A stretch of DNA of 64,000 bases from an uncultured Alphaproteobacteria bacterium (GTDB lineage: Bacteria > Pseudomonadota > Alphaproteobacteria > Acetobacterales > Acetobacteraceae): the NCBI GenBank assembly GCA_963850605.1, contig CAWKLX010000002.1, positions 396,966 through 460,965 on the forward strand. Direction: 5' to 3'. The notes beneath the pieces are model-generated. The model was given only the letters and a program-made list of their open reading frames with translations. It searched no databases and had not been told where the DNA came from. The first letter of the stretch is position 1. The number at the start of each line of letters is the position of its first letter. A program made the position numbers and the translations under genes. Shown here one piece after another: positions 1-18,095 of this stretch.

Positions 1-299
1 ACAGCCAGGATCTCCGCATACCCGGGCAACCCGCGCAGGTGCAGCCGCGCCACCGCCAAATGCGCCAGCACGCGCAAATCGTGCGTACGTTCGAGAAGGG
101 CGGCCGCCTGTGCAGAGACCAGCTTCCAATCCGGGTCCTCGGCCGCAACGATCGTATCGCCGTATTGCTGCTCGGGCTTGCCGCGCGCTTCACGCTCCAG
201 CGCGCCGAAATCGCCGTCGAACTCCAGGTTCTCGCCGCAGGGCGCATCAGCCGATACGTCCGCCAACAGCCCGGCTAGCTCGGATGACCCCTCAATCAC
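1..299 (-). CDS. ImpA-family N-terminal domain protein (TssA-like, type VI secretion associated); only the 5' end lies in the window
   Basis: Absent from the ORF track because it has no in-window stop. My reverse-complement translation from GTG at 299 gives VIEGSSELAGLLADVSADAPCGENLEFDGDFGALEREARGKPEQQYGDTIVAAEDPDWKLVSAQAAALLERTHDLRVLAHLAVARLHLRGLPGYAEILA. This fits the ImpA_N pattern (PCGE.L.fD..F..LE ... DW..V ... LL..T.DLRVL..L..A). The GTG overlaps the CHAT stop as GTGA (296-299). Confidence 0.6.
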   Translation of the reverse strand, partial: MIEGSSELAGLLADVSADAPCGENLEFDGDFGALEREARGKPEQQYGDTIVAAEDPDWKLVSAQAAALLERTHDLRVLAHLAVARLHLRGLPGYAEILA

Positions 300-3277
300 G
301 AGGGCCGTGCCGTCGCGGACACGGCACGGCCCTCGCCGATCAACGCCAGCGGCGCCCAGTAATACGGATGGGCCAGCTCCGGCAGATCGGTGCGCGCTTT
401 GTCGAGCAGTCGACGCTGAGCATCGGCCAGCGCCGTGGCCATGCCGGCCGCCGGATGTTGCCGTGCATAAGACAGGGTGGCGGCGACCAGGATGGAGGTG
501 ACGCGGTCGTTCACGTCCCAATGCGTCACCAGCAAAGATCGTGCGCCCGCGTGAAAAAAACTTCGCGCCAGGCCCGACAGGCTTTCGCCGGGCGCCGATC
601 CGCCGGGGCCACCGCTGTTGCACGCCGACAGCAGCACCACGTTTGCGTCCAGCTTCAGCCCCGCCACTTCGGACGCCGTCAGAAGCGCGCCTTGCGCATC
701 GGCGGCACTCGGCGGAGCCGACGTCACCAGTGCCGGCTCCGCCTGGCAGGCGAGATCGGTTTGCAGGATCGCGTGCGTGGCGAAATGCAGCACCTGGTAG
801 TCAGACAGTTGCGTGTCCTGCACCGCGCGCGACGTGAACGCCGCGCCCAGCAGCGCGTCATTCGCATCGCCGCCCAGCAGCCGACGCGCCAACGCCAGCT
901 CGGCCGCTGCCCCGGGCAGAAGCTGAAGGTTTGCGAACAACGCAGCGCTATCCTTGCAGGTCGCCGCCGGGAAGGTCGCCGCGGCCTGCGCAGGGGTGAC
1001 GGGCCGGAAATTGCCGAACCCGAACCACGGCTTTTGCGCCCGCGAGGTAGCGGCCACACGGCGCAATTGCACGAAGCTGGCCGCCGCCGGCACGTGCGAG
1101 ATCACCAACCGTCGTACCAGGAACGGGGCGTCCGTCAGGTGTCCGGGATCGGCTGGGCCGGTCAGCAGCAGGCCGAACGGGATCGACAGCAGCGTCCCGG
1201 TCGGCGCCACGGTCAGCGACTCCGCCCGCGCCAGCACAGCTTCCTCGTGGCCGAATAGCGCCGTGTACAGCGCCGACGCTGCGCCCGTGTCGAATGGCTT
1301 GAGCGCGCCGCCCGTTTCGTCCATCGCGGCGCGTATGCGCGCGACCAGCGCGTCCACGCGCTCCGCCCCGCCTTCGATCGGCGAGACGGCGATCTTCCCA
1401 TCGGCGAAGAGGAAGGTGTAGCCCGCGTCGGGCGCCAGAATGACAGTGGCGAACACCTCCCGCGGCCGCAAAGCGCCCAGGATGTCGTCGGCGGAGACGG
1501 ATTTCTGCACCAGCTGGCCGTAATTCGGGTCGCCCGATTGCAGCGCCTGTTCCAGGCTGTCGCGTCGGCGCCGCGCATCGTCGAGCAGGCGGGTCGCGGC
1601 CGGATCGCGCGCCGCGCCGCTCCCCGCATCGGCCGCCTCGTCCCGCTGCGCTTCCAGTTCGGCCACCAGCGCGTTGGCATCCTCGCCATCGCGGATCAGC
1701 TTGCCCAGGCGCGGGTCGCGCGCATTATCGGCCAGCCGCGCCGTCACCAGCGCGATCTGCTGGCTTGTGGTGCTACCCTGCGCGCGGCCGGCCAGCGCAT
1801 ACATGTCGCGCGCCACCGCCTGGTCGCCCGCCTCGGCGCGGACGGCCAGCAATGCCAGGCAGGGTTGCAGGCTGGTACTGTCGGCACCCGTGTCGGCCTG
1901 TTCCAGCGCCAGCCGGGCCTCGTGGCAGGTTTGCAGCGCCCGCTCGGTCTGCCCGTCCCCCGCCAGGCGGGCGGCCAGCAGCAGCTGCGTGCGGGCAAAG
2001 GCCGGTGTCCCCGGCAGGGCACGTGCGAACCGGAGCACGGCTTGCTGCATCTTGGCCGTCGATTGGCTCTGCTGGCCGGATGCGAGCAGAACCGTCGCCT
2101 CGGTGCGCGTGAGGCGGGCGCTGGCTTTGCGGTTAGACAGGCCATAGGCGGTCAGCACGCTTTCGGCGCTCGCCGCCTCCGTGCTGCTCTGGGCGTTCAG
2201 CCCAAGCATGCGGTCAGCTACCGCCTGCGCGCGCCGCGTCTCAACCACCCCGTAGGCGGCGGCACGCGTGGACAGGTCGGTCGGCACTAGTGCGCTGCCT
2301 GGCTCCGCGGTCGTGGCACTGTCCGGGGCAAAGGGCAGGTAGGCCCGCTCGGCGCGGCGCAGCAGCACCAGCGCGGCCGCCGGCCGGTCCTGGTTCAGCA
2401 GGTTCAATCCCTGATAATGCGTGACCTGAGCCAGCGTCAGGTCCTCGCCGCCGCTGCGCACGGCCAAGGTCTCGGCCTGCCCCAGCAACGCGTCGGCTTC
2501 CGGATAATGCGCCTGGTTGGAGGCCTGCAGTCCTTGCAGGGCGAGCGCGTGGGCCAGGGCGGGACTGTCGGCGTCGACCGTGCGCCGTTGCAGGTCCGCC
2601 ATCTTACGGTAGGTGTCCGCAGCAGCCGCGTACTCGCCGGCCAAATTGGCCTTCACCGCCGCGCGTTGCAGCCCTTGGTAACGCGCGATGTCGTTCGCCG
2701 ACACTACCAGGCCGGCCAAGCGCTGGGCAGCCAGGCCCGGGCTTTCGGCGACGGTGCCCAGGCTGGCGGGGCCGATGCGGCCCGAATCGAGCGCCAGCGC
2801 GCGTTCCATCACCAGGCCGGCCGCCGGCACACCGTCGGCGTACCAGGCGTGCCCATCCAGCAGCGCCACAAACGCGGTCTGCCCAAAACCTTCCTGGCGC
2901 CGAGTGCAAGCCATCAGCATGGCCGTCGCGCCCAGCACCGTGCTGGCCTTCGGCGCCGCACAGGCCAACGTGGCGTCCAGCTGCTCGCGCCACGGACCGG
3001 ATGTGGCCAGCGTTGGCAGCAGCGCCTCGGTGGCCGGCTCGCCCCGGCGCAGCGTGGCGCTGGGCTGCTTCCAGGTGCCGCAGAAAATAGCATACCGCCG
3101 CCCGGCCTCTACTTCGGACTGGCTACACGGCTCGCCGGCGGCGTTCTGCCCCAGCGCGGCCGTGGCGGCGGCGGGTGCCGCACCCCCGTCATAGGCGGTG
3201 GCAGGCGGGCGCGCGCAGGCGGCCAGAACGGCCAGGCCGGCCGCGCCGATTGCCGCCAGGACACGGGAACGGGCCAT
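296..3277 (-). CDS. TPR-repeat / CHAT-domain (caspase-like peptidase) lipoprotein
   Basis: 993-aa ORF. The N-terminus MARSRVLAAIGAAGLAVLAAC has a signal peptide and a lipobox Cys. The long Ala/Leu-rich middle is helical-repeat (TPR-like). The C-terminal CHAT dyad context is HFATHA ... VVLLSACNSGG ... SFFHAGARSLLVTHWDV. Confidence 0.85.
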   Translation of the reverse strand: MARSRVLAAIGAAGLAVLAACARPPATAYDGGAAPAAATAALGQNAAGEPCSQSEVEAGRRYAIFCGTWKQPSATLRRGEPATEALLPTLATSGPWREQLDATLACAAPKASTVLGATAMLMACTRRQEGFGQTAFVALLDGHAWYADGVPAAGLVMERALALDSGRIGPASLGTVAESPGLAAQRLAGLVVSANDIARYQGLQRAAVKANLAGEYAAAADTYRKMADLQRRTVDADSPALAHALALQGLQASNQAHYPEADALLGQAETLAVRSGGEDLTLAQVTHYQGLNLLNQDRPAAALVLLRRAERAYLPFAPDSATTAEPGSALVPTDLSTRAAAYGVVETRRAQAVADRMLGLNAQSSTEAASAESVLTAYGLSNRKASARLTRTEATVLLASGQQSQSTAKMQQAVLRFARALPGTPAFARTQLLLAARLAGDGQTERALQTCHEARLALEQADTGADSTSLQPCLALLAVRAEAGDQAVARDMYALAGRAQGSTTSQQIALVTARLADNARDPRLGKLIRDGEDANALVAELEAQRDEAADAGSGAARDPAATRLLDDARRRRDSLEQALQSGDPNYGQLVQKSVSADDILGALRPREVFATVILAPDAGYTFLFADGKIAVSPIEGGAERVDALVARIRAAMDETGGALKPFDTGAASALYTALFGHEEAVLARAESLTVAPTGTLLSIPFGLLLTGPADPGHLTDAPFLVRRLVISHVPAAASFVQLRRVAATSRAQKPWFGFGNFRPVTPAQAAATFPAATCKDSAALFANLQLLPGAAAELALARRLLGGDANDALLGAAFTSRAVQDTQLSDYQVLHFATHAILQTDLACQAEPALVTSAPPSAADAQGALLTASEVAGLKLDANVVLLSACNSGGPGGSAPGESLSGLARSFFHAGARSLLVTHWDVNDRVTSILVAATLSYARQHPAAGMATALADAQRRLLDKARTDLPELAHPYYWAPLALIGEGRAVSATARPS

Positions 3278-4854
3278 CAGTAATCCTGCTCGGCGACGTT
3301 GGGCAGGATCAGGTCGTCATCCTCGTCCTGGTCGTGCGCCACGGCCACCACCAGGTTCTGCACCGGGCTGCCCAGCGGCACTACGACCGGGGAGAGCAGC
3401 ACGCAGTTTAGCGACTGCACCGGGCAGCCATTATCGCGATAATTCGTATTGGCCATTTGATGCGCGAAGCCGGTCGCCGCGGCGGCCGAACCGCCGCGCC
3501 CATCGACCAATCCCGTCAGGCTGGCGTTGCCGGTCGGGGGCTGCCCGAAATAGAGGTTCAGCCCGGCCACGTCTATATTGCCGATCGCCCTGCCGCCCGC
3601 CTGCAGATCGAGCAGCAGCTGCGTGCCCGGTGCGAACAATCCGGCCGCCGTGCTGGGATCGAACGCGATCAGCCCGCCCTGCCCGACTAGGGTAAACTCC
3701 ACCGTCTCGGCGCTGGCGCCGGGCAGTGCGCCAATCTTCGTTTGTCCGGTCTGCGAAAAGCTCGCGGCGGTCGCGAACAGGCCGAGCGTGCCCGCCGTGG
3801 GGGAGATCGGGCTCTTAATATCGGGTTCGCCCGGCCCTACAGGTATGGCCGAGCCGGTCATTACGAAGCCACCACTCCACTCAATGCGCTGCGGTGTGGC
3901 AGTCGCATTGGCGAGCCGGGAAAGCTGCATGTCATCGACAAGCGCCGGTCCTCCCAGGACGATTCGAGGTGCGGACAAAGTTCCGGCGAAGCTTAGCGTG
4001 CCGGGACTGCCAATGACGATGGGGCCTGCCGTGCTGGCGATCACGCCAGTGGCAGCTTCGGTGAGATTGTCGGCCAACCCGATCCCCACGCCGGATGCGC
4101 CCAACACACTGCCTGCCAAACTGGCGCCGCCGCCGCCGGTGATCGTCACTGAACCAGCTTTGCTCATGACGGTGCCGGTGGCGGCCTCGGTCAGGTTGCC
4201 GGCAAACTCGATGCCCACGCCAGATGCGCCCGACACACTGCCTGCCAAGCTCGCCGCGTCCCGGCCGATGATCGTCACTGAACCAGCGTTGCTCATGACG
4301 GTGCCGGTAGCGGCTTCGGTCAGGCTGCCCGCAAACCCGATGCTCACGCCGAATCCGCCGGACACACTGCCCGCCAAGCTCGCCGCGCCGCCGCCGGTGA
4401 TCGTCACTGAGCCGGGGTTGCTTACGATGGTGCCGGTGGCGGCTTCTGTCAGATTGCCGGCCAATGACAATTGCACCGCGCCCGGTCCTGAAATACTCGC
4501 ATTCTGCAGCAGCAAGGCGGTGCTGTCGGCCAGTATGACTGAGCCGCTGGATGACACCATGCCGGCCTGCGTCAGACCGCCCGCAATACTAACCGGCCCG
4601 ACAGACGCGATCTGGTTCGCCGCACCGCTCAACACGATGTCACCCGCGGCCTGCGCGGCCAGGGTGCCCGCCTGGACAGTGCCGTTACCCTCGATCAGTC
4701 CCGCACCCGCCTGCAGCGCCACCTGGCCCGTGGGTGCGGTGATCGACCCGGCGAAATCCAAATTGCCGTTGTTGCTGGTGATGGAGATGTCGCCGGCACC
4801 ACTGTAAATCGTGCTTGCAAAATCTTGCATCAGATTTCCCGCCAGGCTGAGCAA
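3277..4854 (-). CDS. C-terminal segment (3 of 3) of giant TPS-domain exoprotein
   Basis: The sequence continues the G/S/T/A beta-helix-like repeats (AGNLTEAATGT..AGSVTITGGG) and ends in an acidic tail DQDEDDDLILPNVAEQDY. The listed start is a TTG just after an in-frame TGA, and the repeat pattern continues from the upstream ORF in another frame. Its stop overlaps the CHAT ATG (TGATG). Confidence 0.75.
   Translation of the reverse strand: MLSLAGNLMQDFASTIYSGAGDISITSNNGNLDFAGSITAPTGQVALQAGAGLIEGNGTVQAGTLAAQAAGDIVLSGAANQIASVGPVSIAGGLTQAGMVSSSGSVILADSTALLLQNASISGPGAVQLSLAGNLTEAATGTIVSNPGSVTITGGGAASLAGSVSGGFGVSIGFAGSLTEAATGTVMSNAGSVTIIGRDAASLAGSVSGASGVGIEFAGNLTEAATGTVMSKAGSVTITGGGGASLAGSVLGASGVGIGLADNLTEAATGVIASTAGPIVIGSPGTLSFAGTLSAPRIVLGGPALVDDMQLSRLANATATPQRIEWSGGFVMTGSAIPVGPGEPDIKSPISPTAGTLGLFATAASFSQTGQTKIGALPGASAETVEFTLVGQGGLIAFDPSTAAGLFAPGTQLLLDLQAGGRAIGNIDVAGLNLYFGQPPTGNASLTGLVDGRGGSAAAATGFAHQMANTNYRDNGCPVQSLNCVLLSPVVVPLGSPVQNLVVAVAHDQDEDDDLILPNVAEQDY
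4039..4465 (-). repeat. 129-bp (43-codon) in-frame tandem repeat, about 3.3 units, inside the exoprotein
   Basis: The motif gatcgtcactgaaccagc.ttgctcatgacggtgccggt.gcgg recurs at 4141, 4270 and 4399, with a degenerate unit from about 4039. The protein-level unit is about AGSVTI.G..AASLAGSVSGASGVGI.FAGNLTEAATGTVMS. Confidence 0.8.
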
Positions 4855-7204
4855 GAACTCCGCCCGCGCCGGTCAGCGATCCGCTCGACTGCGTGATCAG
4901 ACCGCCATTGATCGACAGCTCTCTACCGGACGAGATCGTGGAGGATACCTGGTCGAGGCTGCCACCCAGCAAAACATCGCTTTGTGCGCTGATCGACGCA
5001 CCGCGATCCTGGGTCAGCAAATTGGTTCTCACCTGAACTGCCCCGAATTCGCTGCCAATCGTGGAATCAGCTAATTGCGTCAGGTTAGGCGCCGTGATCG
5101 TCACCCCGCTCTGTCCTGTGATGCTGCCGTTCGCCAATTCCTGCAAAGCCTCGCTATCGATCAGCAGCAGCGTGCCCGTGGCGGAGGCCTGGGTGACGGT
5201 GCCGACCTGATTTACCCCCGCGCCGTCCAGAACGAGGTTGTGCGCGGCGCCGCCGGCGCTGCCAGCCTGGGCGGACAGGGTGCCGGCCAGAAGCGTGCCC
5301 GATGGGCTGCCGGCGACTGGCGCCGTCTGGGTGATATCGCCGCCGAGCGCCACCAGGCTGACCTCGTGCTGCGGCGCGACCGAAATCAAACCACCCAGCG
5401 CCATCTGGCCGCCGGTCGTGGTGAGCAGGATGTCGCCGGAGGGGCTCGCGAGCGTGCTGCCCGTATCCTGCGCCACATCGCCCGACATGGTGACGGTGAG
5501 ATCGCCTGATACGGCAGTGATGCTGCTGGCGATCTGGCTGAGCGTGCCGGCCAGGCCATTCTGGCCGATCGTGACACTGGCGCCGGACAGGAAAGACCCG
5601 GTTTGGCCAAGGCTGCCATAGATGACTACCTGGTCGATGGCGGATAGGCGCGAAACATCCTGGGTCGCCGCGCCGTATACGGTCACGCTCGTGCCAGCCG
5701 AGATCATGCTGGCAGCATGCTGGTCCAGCACCAGGGCCCCGGTTGCAGCCTGTGCAGGGCCGATTATCACTGCACCGCCCGACGTCAGGCTGCTCGACGT
5801 CTGGCTGAGTGAGCCGATCGTAGCATCACCCTGGGCAGTGATGGCGCTGAAGGTCTGCGTGGCGCTGCCTGTCACGGTCACATCGCCCTGCGTCGCGGTC
5901 ACCTGGTCCTGCCCGGTCTGCAGCAGGTTGCCCGCCACCATCACGCCAGTGCCGCCGGTCAGCGCGGCCCCGCCAAGCTGGGTCAGGGTTGCCGCCTGCA
6001 CGGTCACCGACCCGCCTGCCGTGATCAAGCTGGATGCGTCCTGCGTCAGCGTGGCCGGCTCGGTCAGGGTGATGGTGGCGTTTCCGCCCGCCAACAAGGC
6101 GGCGCCCGCGGCGAGCGCCAACGGCGCCTGGTCGGCCAGCAATACGGAGCCGGAAGCGCCGCTATAGGTGCCCCCGGCCGTGTCCACGAGCGTTCCAAAC
6201 CTGTTGTGACCGCCGCCGAGCAGGAGATTGTAAGCGGCCCCGGACGGCACCCCGGCCTGCACGGCGAGGCTGGCGGCATCGATCACGCCGGTGAAATCAG
6301 TCATTCCCGGTGCTGTCTGGGCGATGTCGCCGCCCAGTGAAATCAGCTGCACCAGGCCGGCAGTGGCACTGATGCTGCCACCCGCAGCCAGGCTGACGGG
6401 GCCGTCACCGGCCAGTGTGCCGATACTGCTGGCCACTATATTGCCGGCATCGGCGATAATACGCGACGCCGAGTCCTGCGCCAACCCGTTCGCAAGGGTG
6501 AGGGTGACATTGCCCGCGGTGCTTTCGATGCTCGCGCCCGTCTGCACCAACGTTGCCGCGCCGATCGCCAGGGAATTCGTGCTGGTGATGGCAGCCAAAC
6601 TGTCCTGCGTCAGTGTCTGTCCTGACAGTGTCAGCATCACCTCGGCCGCCGCGATGTGGCCCGAGGCCGCTTCCACTGCGCTGATCGCGTCAGTCAGCCA
6701 GAGCTGGCCGGTGGCCGTGGCGCGCGAGATGGTGCCGATCCGGTTGGCCGCACTGCCGTTAGCGATCGTCCCATTCAGCAGCAGGTCGAACGCCGGCCCG
6801 CCAGCCGTGCCGGACTGGGCGATCAAGGTGCCGGCCAGCAGCGTGCCGGTTGGCGAACTGCCGGATACGCTTTGCGCGATGCTTCCATCCGCCGCGAGCA
6901 GGCTCGCCACGCCGCCTTGTGCGGCTACTAGTCCGCCCAGCAGCAGCGACCCGCCCGAGCTGGCCAGGCTGATATCGCCGAACTGCACCGTAAGTCTGCT
7001 GTCGGCGCTTTGCGTCAGGTCGCCGGACAGGGTGGCCGAGAGCAGGCCGGTCGCCGCGATTGAGGAAGCGCTCGACTGCGACAGGGAACCGATGCCGCTG
7101 GTGGCGAGCATGACAGTATCGCCGGCGATGCTGGATCCGGTATCCTGGGCCACGCTGTTGGATACGGACACGAACGCCCCGGAGATGCTGGCGTCGTGCT
7201 GCAC
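4685..7204 (-). CDS. Middle segment (2 of 3) of giant TPS-domain exoprotein
   Basis: This 839-aa ORF carries the same ..G.LTQ.. / ..SGSV.. repeat texture. The last 55 or so residues (AQPGGKSDARFCKHDLQWCRRHLHHQQQ...) are Arg/His-rich nonsense, so the true frame leaves near 4855. The listed start is a GTG inside an upstream-open frame. Confidence 0.75.
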   Translation of the reverse strand: MQHDASISGAFVSVSNSVAQDTGSSIAGDTVMLATSGIGSLSQSSASSIAATGLLSATLSGDLTQSADSRLTVQFGDISLASSGGSLLLGGLVAAQGGVASLLAADGSIAQSVSGSSPTGTLLAGTLIAQSGTAGGPAFDLLLNGTIANGSAANRIGTISRATATGQLWLTDAISAVEAASGHIAAAEVMLTLSGQTLTQDSLAAITSTNSLAIGAATLVQTGASIESTAGNVTLTLANGLAQDSASRIIADAGNIVASSIGTLAGDGPVSLAAGGSISATAGLVQLISLGGDIAQTAPGMTDFTGVIDAASLAVQAGVPSGAAYNLLLGGGHNRFGTLVDTAGGTYSGASGSVLLADQAPLALAAGAALLAGGNATITLTEPATLTQDASSLITAGGSVTVQAATLTQLGGAALTGGTGVMVAGNLLQTGQDQVTATQGDVTVTGSATQTFSAITAQGDATIGSLSQTSSSLTSGGAVIIGPAQAATGALVLDQHAASMISAGTSVTVYGAATQDVSRLSAIDQVVIYGSLGQTGSFLSGASVTIGQNGLAGTLSQIASSITAVSGDLTVTMSGDVAQDTGSTLASPSGDILLTTTGGQMALGGLISVAPQHEVSLVALGGDITQTAPVAGSPSGTLLAGTLSAQAGSAGGAAHNLVLDGAGVNQVGTVTQASATGTLLLIDSEALQELANGSITGQSGVTITAPNLTQLADSTIGSEFGAVQVRTNLLTQDRGASISAQSDVLLGGSLDQVSSTISSGRELSINGGLITQSSGSLTGAGGVLAQPGGKSDARFCKHDLQWCRRHLHHQQQRQFGFRRVDHRTHGPGGAAGGCGTDRG

Positions 7205-10200
7205 CAGCAGGCGCGCTATCCAGCTCGACCATCCCGGAGGCGCTGTCGATCGCGCTGAGACTGTCTTGCGTCAGAGTGCCGCCCAGGGCCGAGAGAGTCA
7301 CCCCGTTGTTGCCGGCCACCCGCGCACCGTGCAGCAGTGTCAGCGTGCCGGCATCGGTCAACACCAGTGTGCCGCCTTGTGCGGTCAGTGTCGGGCCGAT
7401 CGCCTGGATCAGATTTTGCGAACTGGCGGCAAGGAAATCGCCGGCGGCAGCACCGTAGAGCGTCGCGACAGTGACGCCGTTCGACGGCGCGCCGACGTTG
7501 ACCTCGACCCCGCCATTGCTGAACAGCCCAAGCGTGCCGGCATTGGCCGCAGTTGAAAGATCGATTGCGCCCAGAACCGACAGCGTGCTGACGGCGCCCG
7601 TCGAGGCAGCATCCCAGGTCAGGTTTGCGCCCATGCCGTTGGCCAGGCTGCCGTTGGTCGAGCCGAGGGCGATCGTACCGACCGGACCGGTAAAAACGTG
7701 CTCCAGGCTCGTGGGGTCGATCGTGCCTCCGGCGACCACAGAGAACGTGCCCGGATGCAGCAGCCCGATGGCGACCAGACCAGCGGGCGCGCTGAGGGTC
7801 CCGACCAGTGAGATGCGGTCTGCGCCGATCGAGATGGCGCCAGCCCCGGCGGGCGGCTGTGCGTCGATCGCGGCGCCTGCCGACACCGTTAGGCTAGGGG
7901 CGCGCAATGCTACGCTGCTTGCCGAAAGCGTGCCGTTGAGCGTGACGGCCACCCCGTCCGCCAGTGCAAAGGTTGGTCCCGCGCTGATGCGGCCCAGGTC
8001 GACGATCGCATTGCCCACGCCAGGACCGCTGACCGTATCCAGCCTGATGCCGCCGGCCGCCTGCGCCACCAGCGTGCCCGCCTGCAACGAGCCGGTGGCG
8101 CTGCCGGCCCCGCTCGCCGTCTCGGTGATGAGCTGGGTCGCTGGCCCACCGAGCATCACGGTGCCCTGGCTGTCGGACACGAGGCCCGCGAGCAACAATG
8201 TATTGCCAGTCAGGGACAGTGTTCCGCCTGAAACAATGCTGGAGCCGGCGTCCTGCGTGAGGTTTCCGGTCAGCGCGATGGTGGTGCCACCGGCCCCAAC
8301 ATCGATGGCGCTGCTTGCACCTTGGCCGTCGTTGCTTTGCGAGAACGTGCCCGACTGTACGGATAGCATTGCGGCCGAGAGTGTGGATCCGTTCTGCAGG
8401 AAGCTGGCGCCGCGAATGACGGCGCTACCCCCGGCGCTGATCGTGCTTGCGTTTTGCGCGACCGACCCGTCGATCGTCAGCGCGCCCACTGCTCCGAGCG
8501 AACCCCCCGCGCTCTGCTGCACACCGCCAGCGATCGTGACCGTTCCGCCGGAGAGCGAACCGCCGATTTGACTGAGCGAACCATCGACACTGGCCTGGCC
8601 GGAAGCTGTGAGGCTGTCGCCGGTTTGCTGTGCGAGGTTGCCGGTCAGGGCGAAAGAGGATGCCGTAATCGAGCCGCCCCCCGACATGCTCAACAACGAC
8701 GTGCTGAGCGCGAGCGTGCCACCGACCGTAACGGTGGCCTTGGCCATGAGCGCGATCGGGTCGTTGTCGGCGAGCGTGAGGTTGCCGGAGACGCTGGCGT
8801 CGGACAGAACCTCGATGTGGTTAACTGCGACGTTATCCAGATGCACGTCGAACGCCGCGCCCCCGATCGTGCCCGCCTGGAGCGCCAGTGTGCCGGCCAA
8901 CAGCGTGCCGGTCAGGCCCATGGTGCCGCTCTGCGAAATACCACCGCCTTGAGCCAGCAGATCCACCGTGCCGGTCTGGTCCGAAACCAGCCCAGCCAAG
9001 GTCAGTCCGCCGTTGGCGATCAGCGACAGCGTCCCCCCCTGCGCCGTGATGTGCGACAAGACCCCCTGGTCCAGACTGCCCGACAGCTGGATCGTGCCGC
9101 CCCCCTCACCGAGGATAATCGCGCTGCCGCCGTCTTGGGTGAGCGAAACGGCCTGGCCCATGGCGCCTAGGCTCAGCGTGCCGGCCGTCAGCGTGCTGGA
9201 CGCAGTCTGCGCCAAGCTGCCGCCGATCGTGGCCAGGGAGCCGGCCGAAAGAATGCCGCCGGCCTGGATCACGTCGCCGCCGATCGTCAGCGTTCCCGCC
9301 GAGAATGTTCCGCCGGTCTGTGTCAGCGTGCCGGTAATCTGCGCCAGCGTGTTCGCGTGGATCGTGGCCTGTGCCCCCTCCGTCACGTTACCCACGGCGG
9401 TGAAGCTGCCGAGTGCCGACACGGAGGCATCACTCAAGAGGCTGAGCGATCCAGTGTCGAACGTTACGTTCACGCCTGAGACAGCCGAGGAAATGGTCAG
9501 TGCATGACTGGGACCGGTGACCGAGATCGCCACGTCGCCACCGGCCATGAGTGGCGCGGTGACCGAGAGGCCAGAAGCGTCGTCGAGCGTGAAGTTGCCG
9601 GCGGCAGTTACGCTGCCAAGCGTGGTGATCGAATTGGACGCAGTGTCGAGCACCACGTTACGGGCGCTCACGATCAACGCTTGTGCGTCGATGGTGCCGG
9701 ACGTGGCCGGCATCGGCGCCGGGTTATGCTCGTTGATATCGCCGCCGGCGGTCAGCGTGACGCTGGTGGCCGGTGTGCCGGCGAGGCCGGACAGCAATCC
9801 GTAGATGTCGATATTGCCGGCGGCATGCACCAGGAAGTCGGGTGCGAACAGGCTTGTGCCCGAATCGAAGATGATGTCGCCGCTCGCCGCCCCAGGTGCG
9901 CTGAGCACGGTCGTTAGCGAGATATTGGCCGCGCTGGTCAGCTTGCTTTGCGCAGCGTTCTTGCCGGCGACGAAAGTGATCGCGCCGTCGGTGTCCACGA
10001 TGGTGCTGAGGTCGTTGAGGAAGGACGCGAAATCGAGGCAGTTGGCGCCCATGGCGCAGGTCGCGAACTGCACCGTGAGGGAACCCTTGTCGGTGAACGC
10101 GGCGTGACCCGTCGGCTGGCCCGGCAGGTTTGCCGAGAGCAGCCCGTCCACGCTCAGCGTGCCGCCCGACACTGCGAGCGTTCCACCCGCGTCCCGCGTA

Positions 10201-11429
10201 GTGGCCCCGCTCGCATCCAGCGTGCCGTGCACGCCGGCCGTGCCGCCCGCCTGCACAGTAATCCGCCCGCCCCGGCCGCCGCGCAACGTGCCGCGGGCGC
10301 GCAACGCGGCGCCCGGCGCAACGGTAACGTTTCCGGTCGGCGCAAGCAGCTTTACCGCCCCACCCCCGTAAGCACCCGATGCGTCCAGCACGCCGCCCGA
10401 TGCTACCGTCACGTTGCGGTTGCCGGTCACCGTCACGCTGCCGCCGGCGCCGGACGCGCCCGTCGCCTGGATGGCGCCGTCCACCTCGATATCGCCGCCC
10501 ACGCCGGAGACCAGAACGCGGCCGGACTGACCCCCCAGCGTCGGGGCCGAAATGGTGCCGCTCGCCGAAATGAGTTTCGAGACGACGCCATCGGCCGCCT
10601 GGGCGGTCAGAACCACCGTGCCGCCTGGGGCCAGGATGGTGCCGGTGTTGGTCACAAGAGCCGTCACGGTACGGCCGCCGAGCTGAACTTGCGTGACCTG
10701 GCCGGTCACGTTCAGCGCCACCAGCCCGTCGCCGTACATGTCGAGCGTGTGGGTGGCCGCCCCGCCCAGCACCACGCGGCCCAATACGGCGGTGATGGTT
10801 CCGGAATTGGCCACTTGCGGCGCCACCAGTGCCGCCAGACCCGCCTGGCGTACCGTGATGTTGCCGGCGTTGCTGACCACGGCACCCGGTTGTGGCGGCT
10901 GCACGAAGACCAGGCGCCCGGCCATGAAATCCTGGTCGGTGATGCCGGCGGCGGAGACCACCAGCCCGGCCGTATCAACCGTCGATCCTTGCAGGAATAC
11001 CACGCCTGATTGGTTGACGATGGCGATGCGACCATTGGCGAGAATGTGGCCGGCGATCTGCGACGGGTTTGCGGAGATCACGCGATTCAGCGTGAAGCTG
11101 CTGGCGCCAGGCTGCGCATACTGTACAGTCTGTGCGCTGCCGATGTTGAAATTCTGCCAGTTGACAACAGCGTTCTGGCTCGATTGGCGGACGAGCGTCG
11201 TTGTGGCGTTCGAGGTGATCGCCGCACTTCCGGACGAGACTTGGCCGCCCGCCGGGCGGGCGTTCGCCGCGGGCTGGGCACGTGCGGGTAGGCCCGCAAC
11301 CAGCAATGCGGCCGCCTGCAACGCGGTGGTGGCGTAGAGCGCGGCCCGGGTGCGCCGCGCCGATCGCGGCACACCCGCCTTGGCCGCTTCCGGCGTGGCA
11401 CGCGCGATCGCCCGTAAACGCTGTCCCAT
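6759..11429 (-). CDS. N-terminal segment (1 of 3) of giant TPS-domain exoprotein (filamentous haemagglutinin N-terminal domain, TpsA-like)
   Basis: The signal peptide is ALYATTALQAAALLVAGLPARAQP. The TPS/haemagglutination-activity domain reads NWQNFNIGSAQTVQYAQPGASSFTLNRVISANPSQIAGHILANGRIAIVNQSGVVFLQG. ATG at 11429 follows a GGGGGAA RBS, and the ORF track gives a TTG at 11471. The last 145 or so residues (RRQHLRGVRVRIQQRG...) are out-of-frame nonsense, so the real frame leaves near 7200-7225. Confidence 0.85.
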   Translation of the reverse strand: MGQRLRAIARATPEAAKAGVPRSARRTRAALYATTALQAAALLVAGLPARAQPAANARPAGGQVSSGSAAITSNATTTLVRQSSQNAVVNWQNFNIGSAQTVQYAQPGASSFTLNRVISANPSQIAGHILANGRIAIVNQSGVVFLQGSTVDTAGLVVSAAGITDQDFMAGRLVFVQPPQPGAVVSNAGNITVRQAGLAALVAPQVANSGTITAVLGRVVLGGAATHTLDMYGDGLVALNVTGQVTQVQLGGRTVTALVTNTGTILAPGGTVVLTAQAADGVVSKLISASGTISAPTLGGQSGRVLVSGVGGDIEVDGAIQATGASGAGGSVTVTGNRNVTVASGGVLDASGAYGGGAVKLLAPTGNVTVAPGAALRARGTLRGGRGGRITVQAGGTAGVHGTLDASGATTRDAGGTLAVSGGTLSVDGLLSANLPGQPTGHAAFTDKGSLTVQFATCAMGANCLDFASFLNDLSTIVDTDGAITFVAGKNAAQSKLTSAANISLTTVLSAPGAASGDIIFDSGTSLFAPDFLVHAAGNIDIYGLLSGLAGTPATSVTLTAGGDINEHNPAPMPATSGTIDAQALIVSARNVVLDTASNSITTLGSVTAAGNFTLDDASGLSVTAPLMAGGDVAISVTGPSHALTISSAVSGVNVTFDTGSLSLLSDASVSALGSFTAVGNVTEGAQATIHANTLAQITGTLTQTGGTFSAGTLTIGGDVIQAGGILSAGSLATIGGSLAQTASSTLTAGTLSLGAMGQAVSLTQDGGSAIILGEGGGTIQLSGSLDQGVLSHITAQGGTLSLIANGGLTLAGLVSDQTGTVDLLAQGGGISQSGTMGLTGTLLAGTLALQAGTIGGAAFDVHLDNVAVNHIEVLSDASVSGNLTLADNDPIALMAKATVTVGGTLALSTSLLSMSGGGSITASSFALTGNLAQQTGDSLTASGQASVDGSLSQIGGSLSGGTVTIAGGVQQSAGGSLGAVGALTIDGSVAQNASTISAGGSAVIRGASFLQNGSTLSAAMLSVQSGTFSQSNDGQGASSAIDVGAGGTTIALTGNLTQDAGSSIVSGGTLSLTGNTLLLAGLVSDSQGTVMLGGPATQLITETASGAGSATGSLQAGTLVAQAAGGIRLDTVSGPGVGNAIVDLGRISAGPTFALADGVAVTLNGTLSASSVALRAPSLTVSAGAAIDAQPPAGAGAISIGADRISLVGTLSAPAGLVAIGLLHPGTFSVVAGGTIDPTSLEHVFTGPVGTIALGSTNGSLANGMGANLTWDAASTGAVSTLSVLGAIDLSTAANAGTLGLFSNGGVEVNVGAPSNGVTVATLYGAAAGDFLAASSQNLIQAIGPTLTAQGGTLVLTDAGTLTLLHGARVAGNNGVTLSALGGTLTQDSLSAIDSASGMVELDSAPAGAARRQHLRGVRVRIQQRGPGYRIQHRRRYCHARHQRHRFPVAVERFLNRGDRPALGHPVRRPDAKRRQQTYGAVRRYQPGQLGRVAAAGRTSSRTRRRGEPARGGWKHRAKRIRQFANRHAAGRHLDRPVRHGWRAGVRPAAEWDDR

Positions 11430-11613
11430 CGCCGTTCCCCCGCCGCTGAGCCAACTCGTGCCACGCGGCAATCTGCCTATACTATCGCATTTTCAACTTG
11501 CTTGAAAACGAAATCGCCCGACCGAGCCAAATCCGTTGCCGTAAACGCGTGCTTCGCCTTGTCGCGCCGCCATCTTTAGCCGCCTGCCGGCTTCGGTTCG
11601 ATCTCATGATGGT

Positions 11614-13386
11614 CTAGAAGTGAGCAATGATCTGCCAAAAGAACGCACTTGATTTGAGCCGCGGGTTTTGCGCGCCTTCCGGCGTGCGGGTCAGCCGGCT
11701 CACCCCCTCCAGATCGATCTCGGCATGATCGCCCAGCGTCAGCCGGACACCGCCGCCCAATGAGCGAAGGGTATGGCTGGCGTCGGTCCGCTGCTGCTGC
11801 CAGGTCTCGCCCCAGTCGAAAAATCCGTAGAAGACGGCTTGAGGATTAACCCGCCAGCCCGGTCCCCACCCAGGGATCGGCGGCAAAGGTGTCGTCAGTT
11901 GCGGTTCGATCTTCGTGGTCAGCGCCCGATCGCCGGTCACCTCGCCATAGTAGAACCCCCGGTTGAAAGAGGGGCCGCCCAAATAGAACTCTTCCTCGGG
12001 CGGAAGAGTGTTGTCGGTGAACTGCCCCTCTGCCGCCAACTCGACCTGTACCGTCGCGGGCTCATCGAACAGGCGATACGGGTGGAACAGTATTTGCGTG
12101 CGTTCCAGGCGGGCGTTGGCCTTGGTGAAATCGACCCGCTCATTCAGCCGCGGCAATTGCGGGTTTCCGTTGGTGGACGCGCCAAACGCCGGCAGTCCTT
12201 GGCTGAACGTGACCTCGCCCACATTGGTCGCCGGCATTCTTGGAGAGATCCAGAGATCGCTCAGCGTGTCGGTGGCATCCAGACTGAGCACGCGCAAACT
12301 GTCGAAGCTGGCGCGCGAGGCCGGTCCCAACACGGAATAGGCGATGTCGGATTCCACGCCGTCGAACTGCAACGCCAGCGACAGATCCTGCTGGCGCGAG
12401 CGGATGACGGGATAGGTGAGCGCCGCGCCGAACACGCGCGTCACCCCATCGTAACCGAGCGCGCGCAAGCTGCCCGAGGGTGCGGACTCGCCCGCGCCGC
12501 CATAGATGCGCAGCTTTAAGCCGGACGTGCCGATGAAGAATTCTTCCGCAGCCTGGCCGAACGTGTCGGTGTTGTTGAACGTATGATAGATCGACAACTC
12601 GGTCCGCTCGCCCCATGCAGAAAAACTGTTGGCGTCGGCCACGGCCAGCAACTCTTCCGGCCCGGTCTGGCGAAATGCCCGGTTATCGGCGCGGATGGAC
12701 CCGCTGAACGCCTGCCGTGTGACTTGCGCGCGCAGCGAAAGCGCGCCCGGGTCGGTGGCGGATGGGTCGAGAATGACGTGCACTGTCACGCCCGGCACAT
12801 CGTTGGCCAGCAGCACCCAGCGTTCGAGATCGCCGGCACGCAGCAGGCGGCCGTCTGCCAAGTGGTTGAGGAATCCTAGCACGAGCGTGCCGGCGGGCCC
12901 GATATCCTGGCTGAGCTTAACACTGATAATGTGCGGCTCGACGACCGTGATCCGCAACTGCCGTTCATGGATGCGGGCGCGCACGGCGGTGTAGGTGTAG
13001 CCATCCCGGCGATACAGATTGAGCAGCGCGGCTCGCGCTATCTCGACTTGCTCGAGCGGCACGGCCGGTCCGGTCAGGCCGGCCAGCAAGGGCGCCAGTT
13101 TTGCCTGGCTGTAGGCGGTGGAACCGTTGATTGCGACGCTGTCGATACTGAAAACCTGGCCGGGTATGACGGCTGCCGGTGCCACCGGCGCGGGTGGCGG
13201 CGCGGCCGGTGCGGTGTTGGGCGGCGGCGGCGATTGTATGCCCGGCAGCGGCGAGCCGAGCGGTGGCCGCGTTTGCGCCAGGGATGTGGGCGCGCCGGTC
13301 ATCCACAGAGTTCCCGCCAGCGCGGTTCGGCACAGACGGCGTTTAGATGCGAGAAGGCGGGCCGATGCTGGACGCGACGCGGGCAT
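11614..13386 (-). CDS. ShlB/FhaC/HecB-family two-partner-secretion outer-membrane transporter (TpsB)
   Basis: The signal peptide is ...LAGTLWMTGAPTSLAQ. A POTRA-like region follows (FSIDSVAINGSTAYSQAKLAPLL..., LLNLYRRDGYTYTAVRARI). The C-terminal half is a beta-barrel ending FFWQIIAHF (terminal aromatic residue). ATG at 13386 is preferred over the track start at 13449. Confidence 0.85.
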   Translation of the reverse strand: MPASRPASARLLASKRRLCRTALAGTLWMTGAPTSLAQTRPPLGSPLPGIQSPPPPNTAPAAPPPAPVAPAAVIPGQVFSIDSVAINGSTAYSQAKLAPLLAGLTGPAVPLEQVEIARAALLNLYRRDGYTYTAVRARIHERQLRITVVEPHIISVKLSQDIGPAGTLVLGFLNHLADGRLLRAGDLERWVLLANDVPGVTVHVILDPSATDPGALSLRAQVTRQAFSGSIRADNRAFRQTGPEELLAVADANSFSAWGERTELSIYHTFNNTDTFGQAAEEFFIGTSGLKLRIYGGAGESAPSGSLRALGYDGVTRVFGAALTYPVIRSRQQDLSLALQFDGVESDIAYSVLGPASRASFDSLRVLSLDATDTLSDLWISPRMPATNVGEVTFSQGLPAFGASTNGNPQLPRLNERVDFTKANARLERTQILFHPYRLFDEPATVQVELAAEGQFTDNTLPPEEEFYLGGPSFNRGFYYGEVTGDRALTTKIEPQLTTPLPPIPGWGPGWRVNPQAVFYGFFDWGETWQQQRTDASHTLRSLGGGVRLTLGDHAEIDLEGVSRLTRTPEGAQNPRLKSSAFFWQIIAHF

Positions 13387-13566
13387 GATGGCGATAGTCC
13401 ACACGGAGTGACCGAAATTATAGCCGCTAAGAGGCATTTTGACAAACACCGCGTAACAATTTGCGGACTGCTTGATGATATCTAGTCTTTTTAGTTGATC
13501 GGGTGTAAGGTGCGGTCATCTCAGGCACGCATGGCGTGGACGTGCCGCCACCCGAGGGTTTAACCA

Positions 13567-14143
13567 ATGTGTCGCAAAATTCTCATGCCCGTGTATGTAT
13601 TGGTTGCGGTGATGATTGGAACGGCTGGCGCGCGCGCCGCCGCGGACCCTTCATCCGATGACATGATTTCGGCGTTGAAGCGGGACGGCCTCCGCGGTCC
13701 CAGTCGCGGTATTCGCGCAGTCGGCCCCTCCAGCATGCCCGACCCTAAGTCGGCTGCGCCGCAACGCCATCGCGCCGAGAAGGTGTCTAGAGTCGGGCTC
13801 GCTCGATTTGTCGGTCCAGTTCGCCAGCGGATCGGCCGAGCTGACCCCGGCAGCGACACATTTGCTCGACCGGCTCGGCCATGCATTGTCCAGCCCGGCC
13901 TTGGCCGGCGATCGTTTTCGTATTGAAGGCCATACCGATACGGTCGGCACGGCCGAGGCCAACAAGGCGCTGTCGCAGCAGCGGGCGGAGCGAGTTGCAC
14001 GGTATCTGCAGGAGAAATTCAATGTGGACGCGTCGCGCCTCGCGGCCGAGGGCGTGGGGGAGGACGATCTGCTGGTGCGCACGGCCGATCAGGTGCCCGA
14101 ACCACGCAACCGCCGCGTGCACATCGTCAACCTGGGCGCGTAG
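13567..14143 (+). pseudogene. OmpA-family (peptidoglycan-binding OmpA_C-like) protein, apparent frame break near 13790
   Basis: ORF 13808-14143 carries the OmpA_C signature: VQFASGSAELT...RIEGHTDTVGTAEANKALSQQRAERVARYL...NRRVHIVNLG. ORF 13567-13926 in another frame supplies a signal peptide (MCRKILMPVYVLVAVMIGTAGARAAA) and DMISALKRDGLRGPSRGIR, then turns to nonsense. The two read as one gene if one base is added or removed near 13780-13800. Confidence 0.7.
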
Positions 14144-14316: not shown

Positions 14317-16116
14317 ATGAACCTGGCGGCAGGCGACAGCCTGGGCAAATACCTGATCGCCGGCACGCTGGGCCGCGGGGCGATGGGCACGGTATACGAC
14401 GCACGCGACCCGGTGATCGACCGGCGGGTGGCGATCAAAACTATCCCATTGGTGCCCGCCGACGATGATGAGGGCGAGGCGCTGGCCCGCTTCAAGCGCG
14501 AGGCGCAGGCGGCCGGACGGCTGCACCACCCCAACATCGTTGGCGTCTACGATTACGGCGAAACCGCTTCGATTGCCTACATCATCATGGAATTTGTCGA
14601 GGGACGTTCGCTGAAAGCACCGCTGGATGCGCATGAGCGGTTCGCGCCGGCCGAAACCGTGCGCATCATGGAGAGCATTCTCGACGGGCTTCATTACAGC
14701 CACAGCCGCGGCGTAGTGCACCGCGACATCAAGCCCGCCAACATCATGCTGACGAAAGAGGGCGTTGTGAAAATCGCCGATTTTGGCATCGCGCGGATCG
14801 AGAGCAGCCAGATGACGCAGGCCGGCACCATTATGGGCACGCCGGCCTACATGTCGCCCGAGCAGTTCATGGGACAGACGGTCGATCTGCGCACCGATAT
14901 CTATTCGGCTGGCGTGCTGCTCTATCAGTTGCTCACCGGCGAGCGGCCGTTCGACGGCGGCATGTCCGCCATCATGCACAAGGCGCTGCACACCGAGCCG
15001 CCGGCCCCCTCGGCGATCTCTGTCGTCTCGCCCACCGAATTCGACGCGGTGGTGGCGCGCGCAATGGCCAAGCGTCCGGAACACCGTTTCCAGTCGGCCG
15101 ACGAGTTCGCCGCCGCCATCCGGGGCGCGCTGGTTGCACCCGCGGCTGCGCGCGCGTCCGACAGGCCGGCCGAGGCAGAGGCTACGATCGTGTATGCACC
15201 CCGCCCGGCCGGCCCGCCGGCAACTGCCATTGCCCCGCCGGTGGAGCGGCCTGCCTCGCGCATGCCAGTCTTTGCCGGCATCACGGCCGTTGTTCTCGTG
15301 CTGGCTGGTGCCGGTGCATTTTTCGCATGGCGTCAACCGGCGCCATCGGCGGTGTTGCCGCCGCCCCCGGCACCACCTGCGGCCAAGCCGGTGGCCGTCG
15401 CTCCGCCGTTCGTGCCGATGCCGGTTCGGCAGGCGCCGAAAGCGGCCGATTTCAGCCAGCTTCCGGCTGTCTTGGGGGGGCTCTCGCACGTTGCGTGCAG
15501 CCTAGCGGCGGTTGGCATCTCGGATGGGGCATTCGCGATTACCGGCATTGTGTCGCGCGCGGACGAAGCTGCGCTGCGGCAGGCGGCGAAGGATAACGTG
15601 TTCGGCGCGCCGGTCACTTGGGGCGTTTCCGCGTTCACCGGCCCCTACTGCGACGTGCTGGACGCCGTCCGCCCGCACGCCGCCGGTTCGTCCGGACTAG
15701 GTCACTTGTCGCTCGCGTTGCAGGGCGCGCCGCCCTCCCTGGTGAAAGATGCCCATATCGTGCCGGTGGTCGATCTGCCCGACTACAGCGCGTATCTCCG
15801 GGTGGACTACTTCAGCAACGATGGCATGGTGGCGCACATTACGCCGGGCCGCGGGCACGAAGCCACCTACCCGGCCGGGACATCTGTGGCGTTCGGCGCC
15901 GATCCCAAGCTCGGATTTTTCAAGGCCGGGCCGCCTTTCGGCACGGATATGATGGTCGCCATTGCATCTAGCATGCCGTTGTTCAGCAAGCCCCGCCTTG
16001 GCACCGATACCGTCGCCGCCTACCTCCCGGCGCTGCGTAGTGCGCTGGCCAATGCCGCCCAATCGGGCGCACACATCGAAGCGCGCGCCATCCTGGTGGA
16101 AACACGCGCACGTTGA
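14317..16116 (+). CDS. Hanks-type serine/threonine protein kinase with one TM segment and an extracytoplasmic C-terminal domain
   Basis: Kinase motifs are GRGAMGTVYDARD, VAIK, HRDIKPANIML, DFGIA and GTPAYMSPEQ. A Pro/Ala-rich linker follows, then a TM segment (VFAGITAVVLVLAGAGAFFAW) and a C-terminal domain of about 230 aa with unrecognised fold. Confidence 0.9.
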   Translation: MNLAAGDSLGKYLIAGTLGRGAMGTVYDARDPVIDRRVAIKTIPLVPADDDEGEALARFKREAQAAGRLHHPNIVGVYDYGETASIAYIIMEFVEGRSLKAPLDAHERFAPAETVRIMESILDGLHYSHSRGVVHRDIKPANIMLTKEGVVKIADFGIARIESSQMTQAGTIMGTPAYMSPEQFMGQTVDLRTDIYSAGVLLYQLLTGERPFDGGMSAIMHKALHTEPPAPSAISVVSPTEFDAVVARAMAKRPEHRFQSADEFAAAIRGALVAPAAARASDRPAEAEATIVYAPRPAGPPATAIAPPVERPASRMPVFAGITAVVLVLAGAGAFFAWRQPAPSAVLPPPPAPPAAKPVAVAPPFVPMPVRQAPKAADFSQLPAVLGGLSHVACSLAAVGISDGAFAITGIVSRADEAALRQAAKDNVFGAPVTWGVSAFTGPYCDVLDAVRPHAAGSSGLGHLSLALQGAPPSLVKDAHIVPVVDLPDYSAYLRVDYFSNDGMVAHITPGRGHEATYPAGTSVAFGADPKLGFFKAGPPFGTDMMVAIASSMPLFSKPRLGTDTVAAYLPALRSALANAAQSGAHIEARAILVETRAR

Positions 16117-18060: not shown

Positions 18061-18095
18061 GGCCGAAGAGTTTTTCGCCGGGCAGGAGCGCCGAC

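Follow-up and report, generated by a model that had tools for sequence, protein, structure and literature searches.

A two-partner-secretion exoprotein and its caspase-fold lipoprotein partner as a candidate envelope sensor linked to type VI secretion in Acetobacteraceae

Why would a gene pair for secreting a giant exoprotein run on directly into a gene for a caspase-fold protease, and from there into a gene of the type VI secretion system (T6SS)? This arrangement occupies the left end of a 64,000-nucleotide stretch of DNA from an uncultured alphaproteobacterium of the Acetobacteraceae (GenBank assembly GCA_963850605.1, contig CAWKLX010000002.1, positions 396,966 to 460,965 of the forward strand), which we call the window. 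Our answer, to which we assign a probability of roughly 0.45, is that a filament of the two-partner secretion (TPS) exoprotein TpsA and a periplasmic CHAT protein together form an envelope sensor, feeding a transmembrane kinase that controls the T6SS. Four minus-strand genes at the centre of this proposal, tpsB, tpsA, the gene of a TPR-CHAT lipoprotein and tssA, were confirmed by a listing of open reading frames (ORFs) and by Pfam:

11614..13386, minus strand: tpsB, Omp85-type TPS transporter (ShlB E=1.1e-11, POTRA_2 E=2e-6, Omp85 E=1e-6)
3277..11429, minus strand: tpsA exoprotein, 2,716 amino acids (aa) after removal of two single-base insertions
10467..11258, minus strand: TPS secretion domain of TpsA (PF05860 E=8.8e-26, 91.8 bits, residues 72-335 of ORF 6759..11471)
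296..3277, minus strand: TPR-CHAT lipoprotein, 993 aa (PF12770 E=3.6e-45)
1..299, minus strand: tssA (T6SS TssA, ImpA_N type), its 5′ 99 codons lying in the window (PF06812 E=1.7e-21, 77 bits)
13417..13445, minus strand: sigma-70-like promoter match, TTGTCA-17-TATAAT (11/12), immediately 5′ of the tpsB ATG; a consensus match only

The family assignments of the original prediction, which had been made from the letters of this DNA and had described the four genes as one operon, all stand (Pfam ShlB/POTRA_2/Omp85, PF05860, PF12770 and PF06812). TpsB exceeds the cut-offs of PF03865, PF08479 and PF01103, the profile set of a type Vb transporter, and the N terminus of TpsA is matched by TIGR01901 as well as by PF05860 (E=6.7e-17, 61.2 bits), as a type Vb exoprotein should be. 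The tpsB ORF is open up to a GTG at 13449, with a good signal peptide from the ATG at 13386, and 184 nucleotides (nt) separate it from tpsA. Reading the sequence also bears out the two overlapping junctions that had been reported: tpsA and the CHAT gene meet in TGATG at 3279-3275, and the GTG start of tssA (299-297) shares GTGA (299-296) with the CHAT stop codon. A terminator scan gave no excess of sites over shuffled sequence, and the gene junctions had none.

The CHAT protein is the least expected member of the set. An AlphaFold2 (AF2) model of it (pLDDT 82, pTM 0.75) resolves three parts behind a signal peptide:

3215-3217, minus strand: lipobox Cys21 after the signal peptide (LAAC at residues 18-21)
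2783-3160, minus strand: Cys-rich β N-domain (AF2 model, residues 40-165)
1478-2740, minus strand: TPR-like helical array (AF2 model, residues 180-600)
332-1282, minus strand: CHAT domain (AF2 residues 605-985; PF12770 155 bits against a 24-bit cut-off)
773-775 and 620-622, minus strand: CHAT dyad His835 and Cys886, in the contexts HFATHA and LSACNSGG

His835 and Cys886 are invariant in 33 of 33 orthologues, aligned at 40-100% identity, and the equivalent His and Cys are invariant in all 13 CHAT proteins of a sister family described below. With both the profile match and the dyad in place, the protein is a predicted clan CD caspase-fold peptidase. Eight further Cys residues are invariant among the orthologues (n=33), four of them in the N-domain. 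Cys21 is conserved in at least 90%; a strict lipobox pattern occurs in 25 of the 33, the rest bar one carry a Cys followed by x-P-P, and the lone exception to a signal peptide plus Cys-x-P-P is an N-terminally truncated sequence. The lipobox and dyad motifs that had been pointed out in this protein are thus real and conserved, and the placing of the protease outside the cytoplasm that had been drawn from them agrees with the conserved signal peptide and lipobox and with the eight invariant Cys: the protein is a predicted extracytoplasmic lipoprotein, and the Ala at its +2 position predicts outer-membrane anchoring under the Escherichia coli sorting rule.

Searched against the PDB with Foldseek, the model matched the Craspase TPR-CHAT protein Csx29 (7y84_C, E=2e-11), separase (about 3e-9) and DdvA (about 5e-9). 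The N-domain and TPR half retrieved 333 clusters at 50% identity (E<=1e-3) from 1.84 billion representatives, with full-length matches mostly of about 1,000 aa, the profile of what sequence similarity marks as a specific family of moderate size. We also considered and rejected an anti-phage defence CHAT: PADLOC matches neither the CHAT protein nor the exported HExxH protein encoded nearby, and its matches to the kinase are to the generic kinase domain.

The company that this family keeps was assessed by scanning one genome per GTDB species. No fewer than 576 related loci were obtained, and our comparison draws on the best 80, essentially all of them from Acetobacteraceae/Rhodospirillales. Query proteins were mapped by tblastn onto 79 non-redundant loci, labelled here with L and a number; cultured relatives among them include Acidocella aquatica NBRC 112502 (L059), Acidocella facilis ATCC 35904 (L072) and Humitalea rosea DSM 24525 (L080). 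Of the 71 loci that have upstream sequence, 66 carry the TpsA C terminus directly upstream of CHAT. The other five (L030, L045, L080, L081 and L084) have giant ORFs in that position, too divergent for the tblastn filter, and we therefore rejected the reading that TPS is missing there. Since tpsA immediately precedes CHAT in effectively all 71 loci, the two genes are functionally tied. What follows CHAT is more varied. Among 68 loci with at least 1.5 kb of downstream sequence, the gene after CHAT is a kinase gene in 42 and tssA in 3, and the remaining 23 have neither there. Sampled downstream genes in these last 23 are mostly unrelated housekeeping genes, and L044 has an OmpA-like gene and vgrG. 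Because the TPS-CHAT trio stands alone in these 23 loci, the obligate partner of CHAT is TpsA and not the kinase. Some genomes hold two TPS-CHAT copies (CBDAQB010000001.1, with L037 and L054; DATJJM01, with L031 and L035), one linked to T6SS or kinase genes and the other alone among housekeeping genes.

The part of TpsA that adjoins CHAT is also the part that changes least:

3280..3579, minus strand: conserved TpsA C-terminal region (Cys pair N.C.i.sv.C; acidic tail with the end ...LP.V...DY-COOH)

The Cys pair and the acidic ...LP.V...DY tail are kept in an alignment of 69 loci. Compared with L002, the last roughly 170 residues are 59-81% identical and the mid-protein 35-45%, which makes the C terminus the best-conserved part of TpsA; the middle is variable, with one distant match only in a collection of 5.8 billion proteins. 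Neither Pfam nor NCBIfam finds a toxin domain in the C-terminal 525 aa. A polymorphic toxin of the contact-dependent inhibition (CDI) type was accordingly rejected, as the C terminus is conserved, toxin domain and immunity gene are absent, and the next gene is always CHAT. The C-terminal regions of HMW1, FhaB and CdiA stay in the periplasm. By analogy with these three, the TpsA C-terminal end probably stays periplasmic as well, where it would be a candidate periplasmic plug and the natural candidate ligand of the TPR array.

To the right of tpsB, and divergent from it, begin the OmpA-like gene and the kinase gene, followed by further genes with links to T6SS loci:

13679..14143, plus strand: OmpA-like peptidoglycan-binding protein (PF00691 E=1.4e-22; start uncertain)
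14317..16116, plus strand: bitopic Hanks-type Ser/Thr kinase (Pkinase E=5.7e-54; kinase domain 14359-15090)
16221..17111, minus strand: HExxH exported protein (invariant HELSH, NEMQAY and YYGHDY motifs)
17152..17904, minus strand: PP2C Ser/Thr phosphatase, PppA-like (PP2C_2 E=1.2e-12; Stp1_PP2C E=5e-48, below cut-off)
18033..18677, plus strand: DUF4337 protein (PF14235 E=4.6e-30)
18717..19613, minus strand: S-adenosylmethionine (SAM) methyltransferase (Methyltransf_11/25 matches)
19810..20196, minus strand: PAAR protein, T6SS spike tip (PF05488 E=1.7e-17; 82% identical to the L170 PAAR)
20285..21418, plus strand: conserved 377-aa protein with no Pfam match; orthologue between hcp and PAAR in L170

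Hydropathy gives the kinase one transmembrane segment (about 15250-15333) and a periplasmic C-terminal part of about 260 aa (15334-16113). A membrane Hanks kinase and a PP2C phosphatase thus share the locus, as in a threonine phosphorylation pathway. Export or membrane signals are present on TpsB, TpsA, CHAT, the C-terminal half of the kinase and the HExxH protein. The last of these has at least 593 homologues, all labelled 'hypothetical'; it has no Pfam, NCBIfam or PDB-sequence match, and its best Foldseek hit in the PDB has E=0.9 despite an AF2 pLDDT of 91.6. Its motifs and model suggest that it may be a zinc peptidase of a new fold. Orthologues of the OmpA-like protein accompany the kinase in about 30 loci, and about 30 have the HExxH and OmpA-like genes after the kinase gene, with the HExxH gene between the other two. 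The order PP2C-HExxH-<kinase recurs in L170, with a related block in L171. A DUF4337 gene stands beside the PP2C/kinase block also in L029, L170 and L171, and judging by this placement the DUF4337 protein may be a further module member. An orthologue of the methyltransferase gene lies upstream of tssA in L030 and L071, and a methyltransferase gene sits between PAAR and TagF in L170. The product of 20285..21418 is 43% identical to its L170 orthologue over 368 aa (E=2e-75). With tssA on its left and PAAR and the hcp/PAAR-linked gene on its right, the TPS-CHAT module has T6SS-related genes on both flanks.

Whether tssA leads into a complete T6SS had to be read from relatives, as the window ends inside the gene. 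L004, a Logan-assembled contig (run ERR11523670) that is 99.9% identical by blastn across window 1-6098, runs 566 nt past the window edge, and its 288-aa TssA passes TIGR03363 (169.5 bits against 160.85), so that the ImpA_N match in the window is joined by the TssA equivalog model on this extension. In an uncultured Acetobacteraceae metagenome-assembled genome at 83% identity (L001, the same as L005) the order is CHAT-tssA-tssB-tssC-hcp-tagJ-tssE-tssF-tssG-clpV. L002 (65% identity) has tpsB, tpsA, CHAT and a 64-aa ORF, then tssA-tssBC-hcp-tssEFG-clpV, and L006 and L037 (47-48% identity) share its tpsB-tpsA-CHAT-tssA-T6SS order, without overlaps. The contiguous core is thus seen in relatives at 83%, 65%, 48% and 47% CHAT identity. 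A T6SS left of the window had been proposed for this genome; with L001/L005, L002, L006 and L037 all continuing into tssBC-hcp-tssEFG-clpV, the proposal holds, by extrapolation from these relatives. The check that had been proposed on the four-gene order gave a less even picture: tpsB-tpsA-CHAT-tssA does recur in the same relatives, but the 4-nt CHAT/tssA overlap is kept only in the two closest (L001/L005 and L004), and CHAT followed by tssA is the minority arrangement (3/68). Small 64-aa ORFs are called at the CHAT/tssA junction of L002 (13190-13384) and at the tpsA/CHAT junction of L085 (9804-9998); the junctions in the window overlap instead.

Across the wider set, 51 loci have at least 9 kb of downstream sequence, and 17 of these carry T6SS core genes no further than 10 kb away, in three arrangements: CHAT>tssA; CHAT>kinase> <HExxH <OmpA <tssGFE; and CHAT>kinase ... 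>tssABC. The kinase, HExxH and OmpA genes (in L171 also PP2C and DUF4337) stay with TPS-CHAT where the downstream flank is housekeeping. Conversely, L170 reads vgrG-tssC-hcp-hcp-...-PAAR-methyltransferase-TagF-<DUF4337-PP2C-HExxH-<kinase, with TPS genes not adjoining, and in L003 TagF-PP2C lies a few kb from the TPS-CHAT module. Because of these vgrG-hcp-PAAR-TagF and TagF-PP2C contexts, the kinase/PP2C block looks like a T6SS-type phosphorylation module, linked variably to TPS-CHAT and to the structural genes. The gene set tpsB, tpsA, CHAT, kinase, HExxH and OmpA-like, often with PP2C and DUF4337, recurs in Acetobacteraceae/Rhodospirillales despite rearrangements, and we consider this persistence, as gene order reveals it, a stronger argument than the counts.

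A sister system supplied the main reason for favouring a signalling role. Its CHAT proteins are 28-33% identical to that of the window and of equal length, and they keep the N-terminal Cys residues, with ordinary signal peptides instead of lipoboxes. They belong to a set of tpsA, tpsB, CHAT, an exported 230-aa protein and a CHASE2 guanylate/adenylate cyclase, often with a cyclic nucleotide monophosphate (cNMP)-binding MscS channel (metagenome and genome loci L087-L110 and L133). All 3 look-ups and no fewer than 18 metagenomic loci showed the set, with the TPS genes upstream or downstream. The sister TpsA C terminus keeps a motif of its own, PPAD.DYSSWGNEALWQW. No homology was found between the 230-aa protein and either the kinase periplasmic domain or the HExxH protein. 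The TPS-CHAT front end is therefore coupled to two different transmembrane enzymes, which argues for signalling. The sister system shares with the window the N-domain/TPR/CHAT architecture, tpsA and tpsB as constant companions and a transmembrane signalling enzyme next in line; it differs in its cyclase output, its soluble periplasmic CHAT, its TpsA C-terminal motif and the lack of nearby T6SS genes. A description of it was not found in the literature that we searched.

These observations suggest the following sequence of events. TpsB would export the β-helical TpsA filament to the cell surface, leaving the Cys-pair/acidic C terminus in the periplasm, where the TPR array of the outer-membrane-anchored CHAT protease would hold it. 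A surface event, such as contact, pulling or filament damage, might then trigger CHAT to cleave either TpsA or a partner in the periplasm. The kinase periplasmic domain would read this cleavage, and kinase and PP2C, with TagF in relatives, would switch T6SS assembly through phosphorylation; TPS-CHAT would in effect replace TagQRST upstream of PpkA. A broader version, which we hold more tentatively, takes the TPS filament and TPR-CHAT to be an unrecognised, portable sensor of contact or damage that works by regulated proteolysis and has interchangeable outputs, either a Hanks kinase/PP2C pair gating T6SS or a CHASE2 cyclase with a cNMP-gated channel.

Any such proposal has to contend with the state of tpsA itself. 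An exoprotein of about 2,700 aa had been described as one ORF from 11429 to 3277; the three-frame translation rules this out and divides the gene as sequenced among three ORFs in three frames (6759..11471, 4685..7204 and 3277..4854). Both frame switches are +1 with no long homopolymer at either site, and a one-base deletion at each yields the 2,716-aa TpsA from the ATG at 11429:

7200..7221, minus strand: frameshift site 1, +1, one extra base in the interval; protein-like reading switches at about 7205-7215
4857..4857, minus strand: frameshift site 2, one T more than in contig L004 (99.9% identical)
4045..4461, minus strand: tandem repeat in tpsA, 129 nt (43 aa), 3.2 copies (Tandem Repeats Finder score 582, 84% matches)

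At site 1 the deletion of any base in 7200-7221 restores the frame; no near-identical protein to check it against occurs in the collection of 5.8 billion proteins, and L004 ends short of the site. At site 2, L004 has an uninterrupted 939-aa ORF. It differs from the window by six substitutions, five of them in tpsA, and one gap, at window position 4857. The extra T and two nonsynonymous C-to-T differences fall within 51 nt (4806-4857), a grouping consistent with either a local artefact of assembly or a small cluster of mutations. No further frameshifted genes were found in the window: four overlapping same-strand ORF pairs are distinct genes, so errors are not widespread, and for that reason we dropped a general sequencing error as the source of the tpsA frameshifts. 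A local error in repetitive tpsA is possible. The tpsA of L002 is intact (2,979 aa). Unless the frameshifts are assembly errors, the TPS/CHAT module may be inactive in this genome.

How the locus is read depends on which alternatives survive this evidence. If tpsA is a true pseudogene, the module is a decaying remnant that does not operate in this organism, with polar effects on CHAT and possibly tssA expression. Two independent +1 frameshifts outside long homopolymers, in a window otherwise free of visibly frameshifted genes, and the concentration of the L004 substitutions in tpsA speak for decay; that contig is nevertheless intact at site 2, the tight grouping of the extra T with two other differences is typical of assembly or polishing error in repetitive sequence, and both the CHAT and the tssA ORF are unbroken, with no or almost no difference from L004, so that we judge decay improbable. 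The main rival to the sensor accepts a working module and confines it to the adhesin: CHAT would process, release or tether TpsA, as a functional counterpart of SphB1/CtpA for FhaB, TpsA would hold targets close for T6SS, and kinase, PP2C and HExxH protein would be ordinary neighbouring T6SS regulators receiving no signal from TpsA or CHAT. The adjacency of tpsA and CHAT is universal against 62% for the kinase, the solitary trios need no kinase, a conserved TpsA C terminus would suit a protease or TPR recognition site, and caspase-like domains are known as releasing peptidases of secreted toxins (PMC3482391). Maturation or anchoring alone leaves two things unexplained, namely that the kinase stays with CHAT and not with the T6SS genes where the two part, and that the sister family does not part from its CHASE2 cyclase; on balance we think it less likely than the sensor. 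Under mere co-location, TPS-CHAT would be an adhesin or cytolysin unit with no relation to T6SS, and one lineage would have inherited their adjacency by accident. In its favour, all loci come from one order, where synteny could be inherited, and about two-thirds of those that extend 9 kb or more downstream lack any T6SS core gene within 10 kb. The linkage nonetheless persists across at least three gene orders, the module in the window has T6SS genes to its left and right, and the 4-nt tssA overlap is kept in the 83% relative, which together make an accident quite improbable.

The sensor proposal that we prefer has its own weak points. The window holds no intact TpsA reading frame. The synteny counts come from phylogenetically related loci and are not independent events, and 23 of the 68 loci hold tpsB-tpsA-CHAT with neither a kinase nor a T6SS gene adjoining. 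In the relative represented by L002 and L170, the block with the kinase and the one with TPS-CHAT-tssA were recovered on different contigs from two samples, neither adjoining the other. The DUF4384 match in the kinase scores 25.4 bits, under the 27-bit Pfam cut-off, and neither an FHA-domain protein nor TagF was found among the genes scanned at 13.5-21.4 kb of the window. All of these weigh against a sensor. TagF is present in the relatives L003, L029 and L170, and FHA/TagF genes may lie left of the window in this genome.

Elsewhere in the window, the sole Rfam match is a 6S (SsrS) RNA gene at 42442-42596 on the plus strand (RF00013, 68.2 bits against a gathering score of 46.4), with no match within the TPS/CHAT locus. 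A run of glycosyltransferase, GNAT-type acetyltransferase, methyltransferase, nucleotidyltransferase and HAD hydrolase genes at 48.7-55.3 kb on the minus strand is probably a surface-polysaccharide cluster. Intact purD (56957-58255) and parC (60070-62298) lie beyond it.

How T6SS bacteria sense neighbours that touch or attack them is only partly understood. TagQRST of Pseudomonas, to our knowledge the one well-studied sensory input to the kinase pathway, is not known from most T6SS lineages. A filament, an extracytoplasmic protease and a receptor kinase would make a genetically testable candidate T6SS input for a whole bacterial family. Should the proposal be true, TPS exoproteins would gain a signalling role, periplasmic TPR-CHAT proteins would have a second example after DdvA, this one with an obvious candidate substrate, and the CHASE2-cyclase sister system would offer a route to the ligands of CHASE2 receptors. 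Even a CHAT that merely matures an adhesin would be the first dedicated caspase-fold TPS partner of which we are aware. A literature search on CHAT with two-partner secretion, haemagglutinin, T6SS or CHASE2 found nothing relevant; most subscription-journal papers lay outside it, so the negative counts only as absence of evidence. Each part is a member of a known family; their combination, a periplasmic caspase-fold protease as the obligate third TPS gene, tied to a receptor kinase and T6SS, appears undescribed.

The nearest parallel on the output side is the H1-T6SS pathway of Pseudomonas aeruginosa, TagQRST-PpkA-PppA-Fha1/TagF, a comparison that draws on general knowledge of that system and not on a sequence test. 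It likewise places a bitopic Hanks kinase and a PP2C phosphatase in a T6SS locus, with an outer-membrane lipoprotein and envelope proteins beside the kinase as candidate upstream sensors, and TagF occurs in relatives of the window. Unlike that pathway, the window shows no TagQ, TagR, TagS or TagT homologues, the periplasmic part of the kinase is not a vWA domain and the genes scanned gave no FHA protein. Here the envelope partners are instead the TPS pair, the CHAT protease, the HExxH protein and the OmpA-like protein.

On the TPS side, the statement in the original prediction that TpsA/TpsB pairs normally need no third partner is too strong: FhaB needs SphB1 and CtpA, and HMW1 needs HMW1C. 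In Bordetella FhaB/FhaC, the periplasmic C-terminal region of FhaB is processed by the envelope proteases SphB1 and CtpA, one of them a lipoprotein. Neither protease has a caspase fold, SphB1 being a subtilisin autotransporter and CtpA a tail-specific protease; their genes do not come next after fhaB and are not known to be linked to T6SS or a kinase. HMW1 of the Haemophilus HMW1/HMW1B pair has a Cys pair near its C terminus that tethers the adhesin from the periplasmic side, with no known protease partner. TpsA resembles it in its conserved Cys pair, without sequence homology, and may by analogy be tethered. CdiA/CdiB likewise combines a TpsB with a giant β-helical TpsA, and the C-terminal half of CdiA is periplasmic until receptor contact; unlike that of CdiA, the C terminus of the window TpsA is its most conserved part and not polymorphic, and toxin domain and immunity gene are absent.

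The CHAT protein itself has its best structural matches over the whole TPR-CHAT architecture in Craspase Csx29 and separase, at 10-13% sequence identity; unlike it, both are cytoplasmic and regulated, by an RNA-guided complex or by securin. Closer in placement is DdvA of Myxococcus xanthus (PDB 8rot/8rw5), a periplasmic TPR-CHAT protein whose His-Cys dyad is intact and which is proposed to be a site-1 protease triggered by a signal; its authors know of no other reported structure of this kind (PMC11506125). DdvA, as one polypeptide, carries a cytoplasmic anti-sigma domain and a transmembrane helix and controls a sigma factor of the extracytoplasmic function (ECF) type and CBASS/CRISPR genes (PMC11506125). 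The window protein lacks the fused zinc-binding anti-sigma domain and transmembrane helix, so the likeness is at fold level: the protein described here is a free predicted lipoprotein with a Cys-rich β N-domain, encoded with TPS genes, a kinase and T6SS.

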